A DNA stretch of 63,973 nt, counting the filler, from Actinomycetota bacterium (GTDB lineage: Bacteria > Actinomycetota > Actinomycetes > JAKEEW01), in assembly GCA_046725875.1 (NCBI GenBank). It is 5 parts of 5 records of this genome, joined end to end, with 100 filler letters (N's around TTAATTAATTAA, not from the genome) between each part and the next. Parts side by side here need not be neighbours in the genome. Positions count along the whole stretch, not along the records: positions 8,662 to 29,039 come from JBKOZJ010000137.1; 4 more parts are not named here. One strand, given 5' to 3'. The notes under the pieces were generated by a model. That model worked only from the letters and a program-made list of their open reading frames with translations, did not search any database and had not been told where the DNA came from. A program made the position numbers and the translations under genes. Shown piece after piece: positions 9,199 through 24,943 of the stretch. Each line of letters begins with the position of its first letter. Position 1 is the first letter of the stretch.

Positions 9199-9271
9199 GC
9201 GCCGCTAGCTCAACTGGCAGAGCAGCGGACTCTTAATCCGCGGGTTCAGGGTTCGAGTCCCTGGCGGCGTA
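9199..9271 (+). tRNA. tRNA-Lys(CTT)
   Basis: Cloverleaf GCGCCGCTAGCTCAACTGGCAGAGCAGCGGACTCTTAATCCGCGGGTTCAGGGTTCGAGTCCCTGGCGGCGTA; anticodon CTT; CCA not encoded. Confidence 0.96.
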
Positions 9272-21873: not shown

Positions 21874-22314
21874 CTATGACAGCTCCGCCCTGGTACCTCG
21901 AACCGTGATATGCGCGACCGCGGTGTTGTTGTCCTTGCGCGCCTCGTCGATCTGGGAGAAGGCATCGGCGATCACAGTGATCGTGTACGAACCTGGTCCG
22001 TCAGGCAGGTCCCACAGTGCGGTCACCTCGATTGCTTCGCCCGGCGGCACCTCGGGGGTGTGGACGACTCGCATTTCCTGGTCGACGGCAGCGCCTCGCA
22101 CCCAGAACCGTGTGGTCGTCTCGCCCGCGACAACAGCTCCCATGTTCTCGACGATGGCGATCACCTCGACCACATGCGGGACGAGGCCGACAGCCTCTTC
22201 CGCGGGGCGGTCGACGGCGTCCCGCGTCTTGATCAACCCCACAACGAGGTCCGGCTTCCCGGCCATGCCCACGGTCGTCTCCACGGCTTCCTGCGCCATC
22301 GATCGTAGAACCAT
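21874..22314 (-). CDS. CARDB (Ig-like) domain protein
   Basis: KPDLVV..VENMG..PGEAIEV..GSYTITVIADAFSQIDEARKDNN; real start may be the internal MAGKPDL. Confidence 0.75.
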   Translation of the reverse strand: MVLRSMAQEAVETTVGMAGKPDLVVGLIKTRDAVDRPAEEAVGLVPHVVEVIAIVENMGAVVAGETTTRFWVRGAAVDQEMRVVHTPEVPPGEAIEVTALWDLPDGPGSYTITVIADAFSQIDEARKDNNTAVAHITVRGTRAELS

Positions 22315-22548
22315 CGCTGGCCGACGCGGCCCTCAGCGGCACGGTCGGGCCGGTCAGGGAGGGCCGTCCGGGCGCGGGCCTTGTCTTCACCCTGCCCAAG
22401 GGTGACGTTGGCGACCGCGACCACGCCACGATCAATCAGTAGGACGCGGCGACGGGCGGGCAGGAGCCCATGCTGGTTGCTGATGGAGCCTTCCGGCGCC
22501 TGGTAGGACGCTGTCTGAAAGAATCTTGAAGAAATGTCGCCAAACCCC

Positions 22549-22579
22549 TTGCGCTGTTCGCCTATGGGCGACTAAAAAT
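22549..22579 (+). promoter_or_regulatory. Housekeeping-sigma-like promoter
   Basis: TTGCGC-18 nt-TAAAAAT in an AT-rich patch. Confidence 0.45.
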
Positions 22580-22585
22580 CTCTCC

Positions 22586-22785
22586 ACGTCACCAGTGACG
22601 GCAGCTCGGTCCGAAGGGGCGACCTTCGGCATCGCGAACACCGAGTGGTCAGAGGTTCGCGGTTGGCCCGCCAAGCCGGTGATCGGCTCCGCGGAGCCGC
22701 GGAGGTCGAGTGATCGACCGATGTGGCGACGACGCGGAGCAAGGGAGCCCCTCCATCTCATACATGGAGGGGCTCCCCCTTCTCT
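22586..22785 (+). ncRNA. Candidate structured ncRNA (~200 nt)
   Basis: No credible ORF; consecutive hairpins, some GNRA-capped; promoter upstream; 14-bp terminator stem. Confidence 0.6.
22743..22785 (+). terminator. Intrinsic terminator
   Basis: Perfect 14-bp stem gggagcccctccat/atggaggggctccc followed by ccttctct. Confidence 0.8.
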
Positions 22786-22866
22786 GGGCAAGCGCCGCTT
22801 GTGGCGCAGGTTAAGCCGCCTGCACACGGTCGGTCGCCTGGTCAGCGTTGGGTCCTGGTCGTCCTA

Positions 22867-23211
22867 CTACCGGTCGGGCGTTGAACCGGACGGGCCGGTC
22901 AGCTCAAACCGGGCGCGCTGATCGGCCGGAACAAGGCCGGCGTACTCGGGGTGGCGCTGAATGTACCCGCGGATGAACGGGCAGAAAGGCAGCACGGACG
23001 CACCCTGGGCGCGAGCCGAATCAAGGGCGCCACGCGCCAGGATGGAGCCAAGCCCGCGGCCCTCGAACCTGGAGTCGATCTCCGTGTGCGTGAAGGAAAC
23101 CCTTCCGTCCGTTCGGACGTACCTTGCGAACCCGGCCGCCGTCCCGTTGACGAGGACTTCGAAGCGGTTGGACGTCGGGTTGTCCACTACTGTCGCCTCG
23201 GTCTGATCCAT
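22867..23211 (-). CDS. Small GNAT (YjdJ-like) acetyltransferase
   Basis: FTHTEID..FEGRGLGS..LPFCPFIRGYI. Confidence 0.9.
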   Translation of the reverse strand: MDQTEATVVDNPTSNRFEVLVNGTAAGFARYVRTDGRVSFTHTEIDSRFEGRGLGSILARGALDSARAQGASVLPFCPFIRGYIQRHPEYAGLVPADQRARFELTGPSGSTPDR

Positions 23212-23428
23212 CCTTGGCTCAGCTCCTCGCTCCGGCTTCCACTTGGCGCAACCATCCACGATTCCACGAGGCAATCCCGAGTCGTCAACGTCAGCGGGCA
23301 TTGTCTTTGGCCGCTGACCGGGATCCGCTGCTAGGTGCTAGCGCCCGCTGGCACGGCAGGCAGCCCGGCACCCCACCGGTCCTGTCGGTCATCCCGGCTT
23401 GCCCGCTCGGAGTTGGCGCTGACCGGTG

Positions 23429-24943
23429 TCACAAGGTTGCGCGCATTGCGTGGTACTCCGACAGGATTCGCCGCCACGCGCCGTGCACATGCTCCGTCGT
23501 GGTGGATGGAGCCCCTATCGCTACCCGCAGCACAAGTCGCCCGTTGACCCGGGTGTGGCTGAGGTAGAGCGCACCGGAGTCGTTGAGTCGCTGCATCAGG
23601 GCGTCGGTCGCGCCATCGGCGAGGTCGTCCGGAAGGTCAGGCCACAGTGGCCGGAAGCAGATCAGGCCAAAGGGGTGATGTTCAAGTAGCGCGAACTCGT
23701 CGTCCGTACGCACCAAGGCAGCGAATTCATCGGCGAGTGCCAAACCGGTACGGATGTGCGCTTGAAGGCCCGCCGTGCCGTACCAGCGCAGCACCAACCA
23801 CAGCTTCAGCGCACGGAACCGTCTGCCGAGCGGAATCTGCCAATCTCGATAATCGATCACCCTGCCCGCTTCGGTAGCGACATTGCGCAGGTACTCAGGA
23901 TCGACGGAGAGTGCTCTGACCAATGGGACACGGTCCGCGACCCATAGCACTGAGCAATCGAAGTTGGTCAGCAGCCACTTGTGCGGGTCGGTGACGTAGG
24001 AGTCTGCGTAGTCGGCGACCCCGTCGTTGATCCAGCGGAGCTCTTCGCAGACGGCGGCCACCCCGGCGTAAGCGGCGTCGACGTGGAGCCAGACACCGCG
24101 GTCACGGCAGACCTCCCCGATCATCCGTACCGGATCAATCGCGGTCGTCGACGTGGTGCCGATCGTCGCACAGACCATGGTCGGCGTCGCTCCGTCGGCG
24201 ATGTCCCGGGCGATCATGGCGTCGAGCAGGTCCACCCGCATGGAGAGCGTTTCTGGTTCAACCTCCACGACGCGCATGTCGGCCGGGCGGAGTCCCGCTA
24301 TCTTGGCCGCCTTCTCTATCGACGAGTGGGTCTGCGCTGTCACGTACACGGTGTTCCTGCGGCCTCGGTCGCATCGCTGCAGCGCGGCGAGGAGCGCGAC
24401 CAGCGTCGCGCTGGATGCGGAGTCCTCAATGACACCGCCGCCCCGAGCGTCGGTCCGCCAGTGCTCCGGTAGCCCGAGCGCCTCAGCGAGCCAGTCCACC
24501 ACGACGGTTTCGAGTTCGGTGCACGCGGGGCTCGTCGCCCACAGCATCCCCTGCACGCCAAGGCCGGATGAAAGGAGGTCGCCTAGGATGGCCGGCCCGC
24601 TGGCATTGGCGGGGAAGTAAGCCAAGAAGCTCGGATGCTGCCAGTGGGTCACGCCGGGGAGAATGATTCGATCGAGGTCGGACAGCACCTCCTCGAATGG
24701 CTCACCGTCCTGCGGAGGATGCCCCGGCAGCGCTGCTCGTACATCGCCCGGTCGAAGCTGTGAACGCACCGGGTGGGCCTCGATGCTGGTGATGTAGTCG
24801 GCGACCCAGTCGATCACCCGTTTGCCGTACTCGCGGAACTCCTCTGGAGACATGTGTCTGGTCGGGGGCTCGGCGGGCCGTGTCGCCGGTACCGTTGCTT
24901 TGCCTGTCGCGGGCCAGGGGCCAGGCCCGAGGTTGTTCGACAT
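23429..24943 (-). CDS. Aromatic-L-amino-acid (DOPA/tryptophan) decarboxylase, group II PLP
   Basis: THWQHPSFLAYFP, SPACTELE, HVDAAYAG, PHKWLLTNFDCS, DWQIPLGRRFRALK. Confidence 0.92.
   Translation of the reverse strand: MSNNLGPGPWPATGKATVPATRPAEPPTRHMSPEEFREYGKRVIDWVADYITSIEAHPVRSQLRPGDVRAALPGHPPQDGEPFEEVLSDLDRIILPGVTHWQHPSFLAYFPANASGPAILGDLLSSGLGVQGMLWATSPACTELETVVVDWLAEALGLPEHWRTDARGGGVIEDSASSATLVALLAALQRCDRGRRNTVYVTAQTHSSIEKAAKIAGLRPADMRVVEVEPETLSMRVDLLDAMIARDIADGATPTMVCATIGTTSTTAIDPVRMIGEVCRDRGVWLHVDAAYAGVAAVCEELRWINDGVADYADSYVTDPHKWLLTNFDCSVLWVADRVPLVRALSVDPEYLRNVATEAGRVIDYRDWQIPLGRRFRALKLWLVLRWYGTAGLQAHIRTGLALADEFAALVRTDDEFALLEHHPFGLICFRPLWPDLPDDLADGATDALMQRLNDSGALYLSHTRVNGRLVLRVAIGAPSTTTEHVHGAWRRILSEYHAMRATL

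Follow-up and report, generated by a model that had tools for sequence, protein, structure and literature searches.

A structured RNA gene in an actinomycete genome is a member of a widespread, apparently uncatalogued RNA family of soil actinomycetes

An RNA gene in a gene-free stretch

The window analysed here is a stretch of 63,973 nucleotides, filler included, joined from five parts of the genome of an Actinomycetota bacterium (GenBank assembly GCA_046725875.1), and all positions below count along it unless a contig or locus is named. The source (G000) is a metagenome-assembled genome (MAG) of 197 contigs and 3.76 Mb, 89% complete. We examined a 552-nt gene-free stretch at 22315-22866, for which a preliminary description had proposed an orphan, highly structured non-coding RNA with its own promoter and terminator (the RNA locus is G000:C137:13879-14129 in the source genome). 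The structured segment is real and its reading as a stand-alone non-coding RNA gene is strongly supported. The RNA is a member of a widespread, apparently uncatalogued RNA family of soil actinomycetes.

We place the RNA gene at 22586-22786 on the plus strand; these ends, and the resulting length of about 190-200 nt, are inferred from the promoter and the terminator. The strings of the promoter-like patch stand where the preliminary description had them: a -35 element TTGCGC (22549-22554, plus strand), the same in all three type-A orthologues, is followed after an 18-nt spacer by a -10 element TAAAAAT (22573-22579, plus strand), for which the family-wide counts of -10 elements are given below. 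The -35 element agrees with TTGACA at only three of six positions. Upstream of it lies an A/T-rich patch resembling an UP element, GAAAGAATCTTGAAGAAATG (22518-22537, plus strand), which is kept in the orthologues and appears as AAAGAATCTTGAAAT in other members of the family. At the other end, the perfect 14-bp terminator hairpin already described is present (22743-22777, plus strand; stem 22743-22756/22764-22777). It carries a 7-nt loop, CUCAUAC (22757-22763), and is conserved in the family. A pyrimidine-rich tail, CCUUCUCUG (22778-22786, plus strand), follows and reads as a weak U-tract. As had been noted, no gene follows on the plus strand, and the neighbour on that side is convergent.

The plus strand of 22580-22785 folds with a minimum free energy (MFE) of -111.2 kcal/mol, compared with -88.1 +/- 4.5 kcal/mol for 200 dinucleotide shuffles (z -5.14, none of the 200 as good), which excludes the possibility, raised in the preliminary description, that the stems are no better than those of shuffled sequences. 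The minus strand folds equally well (z -5.89), thus energy alone gives no strand assignment.

Five sequencing runs hold small shares of a 601-nt stretch around the locus, of which the uncovered parts are uninformative. Contigs from the DNA runs cover only 22521-22780. One contig of a soil RNA library, 153 nt long, falls entirely within the RNA (22599-22751) and shows one differing letter and two indels. The soil contigs show that the conserved unit is also present in other soil organisms, and the contig from the RNA library gives a weak hint that the window RNA is transcribed.

The RNA belongs to a family of Actinomycetes

A DNA search of 40 relatives identified two orthologues, both from genomes of the same family, which match window positions 22509-22781 at 84% and 81% identity. 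In the three-way alignment, conservation starts at about 22514, in the A/T-rich patch, and ends at about 22785, just past the hairpin; the flanks are unalignable, and indels of 1, 2 and 3 nt occur inside the conserved stretch. One orthologue (in genome G003) has none of the window's neighbour genes within 1.5 kb. Because promoter, fold and terminator are kept as a unit amid unrelated neighbours, we consider the unit an autonomous RNA gene, independent of any downstream gene, in agreement with what had been proposed. Weaker matches in the source genome and in five relatives were confined to the hairpin and the first 100 nt, comprising promoter and 5' end, and revealed paralogues with a different middle.

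A search with a 20-nt hairpin pattern, in one genome per prokaryote species, returned at least 120 loci, nearly all from records titled Actinomycetes. Among the loci listed, carriers are MAGs of Streptosporangiaceae, Frankiales, Jatrophihabitantaceae, Geodermatophilaceae, Micromonosporaceae, Pseudonocardiales, Propionibacteriales and Mycobacteriales, together with an Actinoplanes isolate, an Actinophytocola MAG and a Leifsonia MAG. All loci collected together contain 135 hairpins with the loop CTCATAC and a stem of at least 8 bp, among them 117 distinct units in which the promoter pattern stands upstream. The units are 140-461 nt long; 82 of the 117 fall between 190 and 215 nt, the modal size class, to which the window copy belongs. 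Downstream genes were unrelated at the 34 loci scanned (PIG-L, DHDPS, tyrosinase, transposase and others), and neither these loci nor the flanks in G003 revealed a conserved neighbour or partner gene.

We built a covariance model, R1 (194 positions, 77 pairs), from a seed of 82 units whose mean pairwise identity is 56%. R1 matches the window at 22585-22783 on the plus strand (99 bits, E 2.5e-27), the window copy itself being a row of the seed. The source genome has a second family copy at C177:38609-38972; it is about 330 nt long, has an extra 5' domain, and scores 99.1 bits with R1 without having been in the seed. The word orphan in the preliminary description is therefore to be dropped, with two copies in the source genome and at least 120 loci in the family. 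The distribution figures rest on 20 relatives and 40 class genomes: R1 matches five of six other genomes of the same family, with two to three copies each, and 11 of the 40 other class genomes sampled, each counted in a different family. In the class genomes the top scores are 152, 132 and 74 bits and the remainder 44-65 bits; the two genomes larger than 8 Mb among the 40 gave no match. The family thus occurs in more than a quarter of the class families sampled, often in several copies. A plasmid or phage origin of the unit was rejected, as neither the plasmid nor the phage collection held anything resembling it.

Several copies may stand side by side. In the complete genome G011 (L014/L160, C1:1889400-1892000, minus strand), three full-length units lie in tandem, each with its own box array (see below), promoter and terminator. 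In the same genome a fourth hairpin with the CUCAUAC loop directly follows a protein-coding gene. Tandem pairs of family genes about 400 nt apart were seen at L045, L056, L060 and L100; of the two genes, the upstream one carries a stem variant of the GCAU/AUGC type and the downstream one has no DnaA boxes.

The family fold is supported by covariation

The family fold was derived from averaged base-pair probabilities of the 82 single sequences, laid on a sequence-only MAFFT alignment. It comprises a Y-shaped 5' domain, a 3' rod and the terminator hairpin. In the 5' domain, helix P1 joins the 5' end to a strand some 90 nt further downstream, P2 is stacked on P1 over an A-rich internal loop (GGAAAC), and the GNRA-capped hairpins P3 and P4 make a three-way junction with P2. 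In the 3' rod, P5-P6 are capped by P7 (CCGA-GCAA-UCGG), giving three GNRA-capped hairpins per fold. The number of hairpin modules that share a constant loop or closing motif (CCGG-GNRA-CCGG, CCGA-GCAA-UCGG) differs among paralogues, and some form arrays with a period of about 70 nt. One such array, at L009:1450-2030 (minus strand, genome G022), is a series of modules about 70 nt long that each contain a CCCGAGCGAUCGGG hairpin. The array closes with a hairpin whose loop is CUCAUGC, and as a whole it resembles an enlarged relative of the 3' rod domain.

In the 82-unit alignment, 79.2% of cells pair in the family fold, compared with 34-48% when partners are slid by 1-3 columns. The covariation score is 0.309, against at most 0.118 for slid partners and 0.187 for shuffled ones (0 of 500 shuffles reach 0.309), and both sides have changed in 69 of the 77 pairs. 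Running R1 on loci outside the seed gave 58 matches (55 loci, E < 1e-10), in an alignment that was fitted to the model and so favours structure: here 83.6% of cells pair against 39-45% for slid partners, the score is 0.345 against at most 0.083 slid and 0.139 shuffled (again 0 of 500 shuffles reach it), and both sides have changed in 71 of 77 pairs. Moreover, the many G-U pairs (for example GC 39 and GU 32 at one pair) and the GNRA loops are compatible with the plus strand only. The family fold is supported by covariation in the seed and the non-seed sets, and the search for homologues and covariation that the preliminary description had called for has thus yielded both, in actinomycetes.

The RNA is non-coding, and no reading frame is conserved: the longest closed sense open reading frame (ORF) has a median of 10 aa, 25 of the 82 units have none, and 1164 of 1310 gap runs in the alignment are not multiples of three. 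A highly structured intergenic RNA could also be a cis-acting leader or riboswitch, and a 131-codon open frame on the plus strand (22526-22921) traverses the RNA body and the terminator, as a small protein gene might. However, there is no plus-strand gene for a leader to control and downstream genes vary by locus, while the frame overruns the terminator and is not conserved, neither of the two 131-codon frames across 22315-22866 has a Pfam match, and the indels between orthologues do not come in threes. The chance that either of these explanations holds is practically negligible.

It could also be argued that there is no RNA gene at all, and that chance stems in a G+C-rich spacer lie beside a hairpin that terminates the convergent GNAT acetyltransferase gene (Acetyltransf_CG; 22867-23301, minus strand), whose 3' end borders the gene-free stretch. 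The equally good folding of the minus strand would fit such a spacer; the hairpin lies 90 nt past the GNAT stop codon, where it could stop transcription from both sides, and two other genomes have hairpins with this loop behind protein genes. Nevertheless, the unit occurs without an adjacent GNAT gene, which contradicts a terminator serving that gene only, and its body covaries, its plus-strand promoter is conserved and its folding energy stands at z -5.1. We regard a mere spacer as extremely improbable.

Most family promoters are preceded by DnaA-type boxes

The family promoter consists of an A/T-rich patch, TTGYGN, a 17-18-nt spacer and TAGAAA. Among the 117 units, which were selected by the promoter pattern itself (TTGYGN, 17/18-nt spacer, TAGAAA-like), the -35 region reads CTTGTG in 59, CTTGCG in 57 and ATTGCG in one (CTTG[CT]G in 116 of 117), the -10 element is TAGAAA in 71, TAGAAC in 26, TAAAAA in six and something else in 14, and the hexamers are 17 or 18 nt apart in every unit. 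The segment 8-32 nt upstream of the -35 element has 59% A+T, compared with 40% farther upstream (88 units). Conservation of this promoter is as tight as that of a stable-RNA promoter.

Most units have, further upstream, two to five or more matches to the DnaA box in the same orientation (TGTGGATAA, GGTGGACAA, GGGGATAAC, CTGTGGACA); the test used was several matches of the TGTGGATAA / TGTGGACAA type in one orientation. There are 1.81 forward boxes per upstream segment against 0.14 reverse ones, and at least one box stands before 99 of the 117 units. In 73 of 106 units the nearest box is 38-41 nt before the -35 element, and in 15 others 50-52 nt before it. The second copy of the source genome (C177) has five DnaA-type boxes upstream; the window copy has none in 22315-22548. 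It is one of 18 box-less units; the others include both of its orthologues and, in tandem pairs, the gene lying downstream, and some of the rest have short flanks.

Boxes of the TGTGGACAA type also precede dnaA in the source genome (L143:795-806, 964-985), the same type as in the arrays of the RNA genes. The gene dnaA lies on another contig than the window RNA, and in two long contigs the RNA gene is about 0.7 Mb and about 3.3 Mb from dnaA (contig coordinates), so that an origin-proximal RNA is ruled out. DnaA-box clusters and DnaA-regulated promoters outside oriC are known from datA of E. coli and from the clusters and the sda promoter of B. subtilis, and CcnA of Caulobacter (PMC8959179) is reportedly an origin-linked non-coding RNA. 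The present family resembles these systems in having a same-orientation box array off the origin, at a fixed distance before a promoter. It differs in that its product is a structured RNA without a known replication link, and in that the window copy is box-less. Box arrays far from the origin offer a testable link between the initiator and an RNA, a kind of link with few bacterial examples.

The terminator loop

Within the source genome, the two family loci are the sole places where the loop CTCATAC caps a long hairpin (14 and 16 bp); the loop also sits on two short stems elsewhere, of 6 and 9 bp. The pattern used to collect the large set fixes the loop, and this set is thus unusable for judging loop invariance. 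In the 11 R1 matches (10 genomes, several families) the loop is CUCAUAC throughout, while the two pairs beneath it are AU, UA, GC or CG, changing in a compensating manner. The stem varies at further loci too, and one locus has the loop CUCAUGC. As a remark rather than a test, the layout of CUCAUAC (pyrimidine, U, CAU, purine, N) resembles that of a tRNA anticodon loop carrying CAU.

In Gram-positive small RNAs (sRNAs), such a conserved loop typically acts as the seed. The RNA could accordingly be a base-pairing sRNA, in which CUCAUAC or another exposed loop is the seed for mRNAs (complement GUAUGAG, which includes AUG) and controls their translation or stability, and a loop that stays the same in 11 of 11 R1 matches while its stem covaries is what such a seed would look like. 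However, in the source genome the complement of the loop occurs only at scattered sites in coding sequences, none of them at the dnaA start, and 7 nt are too short for a specific prediction. An elaborate covarying fold of 190 nt with three GNRA caps, moreover, exceeds what a seed carrier needs. We consider a base-pairing sRNA unlikely.

The window copy within the family fold

In the window copy, the 5' strand of P1, GUCACCAG (22588-22595, plus strand), pairs with CCGGUGAU (22676-22683, plus strand) and closes the 5' domain; within P1, the family pairs the 5' GUCACC with GGUGAU at 22678-22683. Across the family this helix (helix 1) is paired in 78-80% of cells and seven of its eight pairs have changed on both sides, one column pair reading AU 36, GC 26 and GU 15. 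The P3 hairpin, CCGAAGG-GGCGA-CCUUCGG (22611-22629, plus strand), corresponds to helix 3 of the family (86-93% of cells paired, 7 of 7 pairs covarying); in relatives it has a 2-nt indel in the loop, and A22614>G leaves a G-U pair. P4 (22633-22662, plus strand; family helices 4-5) has the outer stem CGCGAAC/GUUCGCG and a short tip, CC-GAGU-GG, where the family has CCGG-GNRA-CCGG. The 3' rod (22686-22740, plus strand; family helices 6-8) is built from P5, GCUCCGCG (22686-22693) with CGCGGAGC (22733-22740), inner stems, and P7, GGUCGA-GUGA-UCGACC (22704-22719). P5 is paired in 74-81% of cells, with nine of nine pairs covarying, and P7 in 96-97%. Over the 3' rod the MFE structure of the window copy and the family fold concur. 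The helices retained are P1, P3, the outer stem of P4, P5, P7 and the terminator.

Three of the hairpins listed in the preliminary description are thus conserved family helices: ccgaagg/ccttcgg (22611-22629) is P3, cgcgaac/gttcgcg (22633-22639 with 22656-22662) is the outer stem of P4, and ggtcga-GTGA-tcgacc (22704-22719) is P7. Other proposed pairings fared less well. The strings catcg (22630-22634) and cgatg (22719-22723) are there, and seven of eight pairs can form between cgtcacca (22587-22594) and tggcgacg (22724-22731), but neither serves as the closing helix, for which the family uses the long-range P1 and P5. These same two helices supplant the local hairpins gccg/cggc and ctccgcg/cgcggag, and ttggc/gccaa has no counterpart in the family. 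The alternative or pseudoknot pairing of gctcggt (22604-22610) with accgagt (22640-22646) is likewise present as strings and is used in the MFE structure; it crosses P4.

Variant letters, drawn from the soil contigs and the orthologues, agree with the family fold. The change 22677 C>T (soil variants, G003) turns the P1 mismatch A22594.C22677 into an A-U pair, 22614 A>G makes a G-U pair in P3, 22717 A>G a U-G pair in P7, and 22712 G>A retains the GNRA loop, whereas 22644 A>T disrupts the gctcggt/accgagt helix.

The window subtype was seen only in three genomes of two genera, and a first subtype pattern retrieved no further members from metagenome contigs. Six metagenome contigs (L168-L173) were rejected as members; retrieved by a second pattern, they have only the exact 22-mer GGTGATYGGCTCCGCRGAGCCG in common with the window RNA and are chance matches. 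This narrow distribution with no metagenome contig, the lack of an upstream DnaA-type box, and a fold in which 17 of the 77 consensus pairs are unformed and P2 is mostly lost would fit a decaying or neofunctionalised paralogue, deprived of its boxes and of part of the 5' domain, whose working may have departed from that of the main family members. Against decay, the three orthologues are 81-84% identical across exactly the unit from promoter to terminator with fully diverged flanks, the letters that differ in relatives keep or strengthen the pairing of P1, P3 and P7, and a near-identical contig is found in an RNA library. Such a paralogue therefore seems improbable to us.

Relation to known RNAs

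With Rfam 15 (4227 models) at gathering score, nothing was found in the window except a tRNA gene at 9199-9271 (plus strand; RF00005, 64.9 bits). Lowering the threshold to E <= 10 over 22300-23000 gave chance hairpin matches only (E >= 0.78, at most 19.8 bits), ARAGORN found no gene in the same interval, and Rfam 15 returned nothing on the RNA at ten other family loci. The covariance search advised in the preliminary description therefore assigns no family to the RNA locus, and its remark that the RNA was not recognisable as tRNA, SRP, tmRNA, RNase P, 6C or Ms1 is borne out by this search and by the comparisons that follow. The RNase P, SRP and tmRNA genes of the source genome are located elsewhere, on C128 (256.7 bits), C57 (62.7 bits) and C136 (140.1 bits), respectively. 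For 6C RNA (RF01066), which has two C-rich loops, there was no match at the locus, and the true copy lies at L144:1018-1093 (53.3 bits). The 6S RNA model (RF00013) matched neither the locus nor the rest of the 89%-complete genome. Searches of the literature on the loop motif, on DnaA-box clusters and non-coding RNAs in Actinobacteria, on an Actinoplanes transcriptome and on catalogues of structured RNAs yielded, at the level of abstracts, no description of the RNA.

Ms1 (MTS2823 / scr3559; PMC9130861) is similar in general appearance: it too is a stand-alone, highly structured and abundant-type sRNA, 200-300 nt long, that has a promoter and terminator of its own, and it likewise occurs widely in Actinomycetes and is difficult to detect by sequence searches. 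The present family differs in being multi-copy and at times tandem, in its junction-plus-rod fold, in the upstream DnaA boxes and in lacking synteny with a HAD-IB gene. Rfam 15 gave no Ms1 match on the window or the ten loci, the Rfam accession of Ms1 being unconfirmed. The mapped S. coelicolor Ms1, in one supplementary file, has a different terminator and no common motif, and the loop motif is missing from this one supplementary file of PMC9130861, while other lists of Ms1 candidates might bear on the point. The Ms1 gene sits between HAD-IB hydrolase and oxidoreductase genes (PMC9130861). In the source genome, PF12710 matches lie on C99, C187, C12, C85 and other contigs, and not on C137 or C177, which carry the family copies; no HAD gene was among the downstream frames of the 34 loci and the few upstream gene ends read. 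Finally, the 82 members have a three-way junction, a separate rod and a terminator, not the long rod with a central bubble of Ms1 and 6S. Because sequence, HAD-IB synteny and fold all differ, Ms1 is excluded as the family of this RNA.

The RNA might still be a divergent relative of the Ms1/6S type that binds RNA polymerase. In favour of this, it is a highly structured, stand-alone Actinomycetes RNA, about 200 nt long, that has a strong promoter, 6S was not found in this genome, and Ms1 homologues are too divergent to be found by sequence search (PMC9130861). The missing Rfam match, the unlike S. coelicolor Ms1 and loop motif, the variable flanking genes, the two to four copies per genome and the junction-plus-rod fold all speak against it, as does a free stretch of about 370 nt at the canonical Ms1 site beside the HAD gene of the source genome. 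We therefore hold such a relationship to be quite improbable, although an RNA polymerase partner is possible as a working mode without membership in the Ms1 family.

The best HAD-IB hydrolase gene (L144:1375-2286) has the 6C RNA at L144:1018-1093 (minus strand, contig C99) a short way upstream. The roughly 370 nt after that gene (L144:2287-2654) contain no listed ORF of at least 110 aa and correspond to the Ms1 position in other Actinobacteria; they may hold the Ms1 of the source genome.

With 6S the family has in common a length of about 190 nt and what we read as a trans-acting folded protein ligand; it differs by the missing model match and by the lack of a long rod with a central bubble. 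As 6S was not detected in the genome, a functional stand-in is conceivable. RNAs of the CsrB/RsmZ type that sponge proteins, and bacterial Y RNAs, are built from repeated hairpin modules with a constant loop or closing motif. The window family likewise has repeated hairpin modules in variable number (units of 140-461 nt), but GGA loops are missing, the flanking frames that were scanned included no adjacent rsr/Ro gene, and Rfam gave no match. With raiA (also present in Actinobacteria), HEARO, OLE and ROOL, orphan RNAs whose function is unassigned, it shares a covarying fold with GNRA tetraloops; all four are in Rfam, whereas the window copy and ten members match none of the 4227 models.

Possible function of the RNA

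We favour, as the probable explanation, that 22586-22786 (plus strand) encodes an independently transcribed, folded, trans-acting RNA of about 190 nt that probably binds a protein and that is tied to DnaA in the main copies of the family. The RNA would act in trans as a folded particle and might bind or sequester a protein, by analogy to 6S, Ms1, Y or CsrB-type RNAs, with the CUCAUAC loop and the GNRA-capped modules as candidate contact surfaces. A role as folded ligand or scaffold for a protein is suggested by the three-way junction, the three GNRA caps, the A-rich loop, the variable modules and the invariant loop; taken by itself we give it tentatively, at a little under an even chance. In the main copies, synthesis of the RNA could be coupled to the replication initiator DnaA, and the window copy would be a DnaA-independent paralogue with the same core promoter, constitutive or drifting.

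Several points weigh against this proposal. No partner protein, conserved neighbour or target was found, and the mode of action is put forward by analogy. The hint of a transcript is a single contig, from the kind of library that can hold DNA, and contigs give neither strand nor ends. A simple consensus scan of 22000-23400 gave no promoter-like site, and its only terminator-like site was at 22366, none at the 14-bp hairpin; the tail after the hairpin, CCCCUUCUCU, is poor in U and is not a U-run, having too few for the scan (tails in other family members are UAUUUUG-like). Collecting members by a pattern makes the hairpin look more invariant in the large set than it is, and binding of DnaA to the upstream boxes is inferred from their sequence. 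In addition, the window copy forms 60 of the 77 consensus pairs as standard pairs, with P2 largely lost, and its consensus-guided fold (-93.2 kcal/mol) is less stable than the MFE structure with gctcggt/accgagt (-111.2 kcal/mol); thus the window subtype may fold differently or be decaying.

A more specific idea, which is speculative and has in our judgement a small chance of being right, is that the family is a replication-coupled riboregulator. DnaA on the box array would set the level of the RNA, the invariant CUCAUAC, which has the form of a tRNA anticodon loop for the Met/start codon, would engage AUG start codons on the ribosome or a CAU-reading protein, and the box-less paralogues would provide a constitutive pool. 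If true, translation initiation would thereby be tied to the state of replication initiation.

We rate the RNA as a new family of a known kind of element in an unusual promoter context. Actinomycetes are the main antibiotic producers and make up a large part of soil life, yet beyond the universal ones, 6C and Ms1, only a small number of stable structured RNAs have been described from them. Absent from Rfam 15, the family is overlooked by current annotation pipelines; model R1 would allow its immediate annotation. The combination of modular growth (units of 140-461 nt, tandem genes) with an invariant loop on a covarying terminator stem is unusual and points to a specific molecular partner.

Neighbouring genes

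On the side opposite to the GNAT gene, the gene-free stretch is flanked by a CARDB-domain gene (21874-22314, minus strand). Directly upstream of the GNAT gene lies a pyridoxal-dependent decarboxylase gene (23429-24943, minus strand), and the two (22867-24943, minus strand) may form a small gene pair for making and acetylating an amine.

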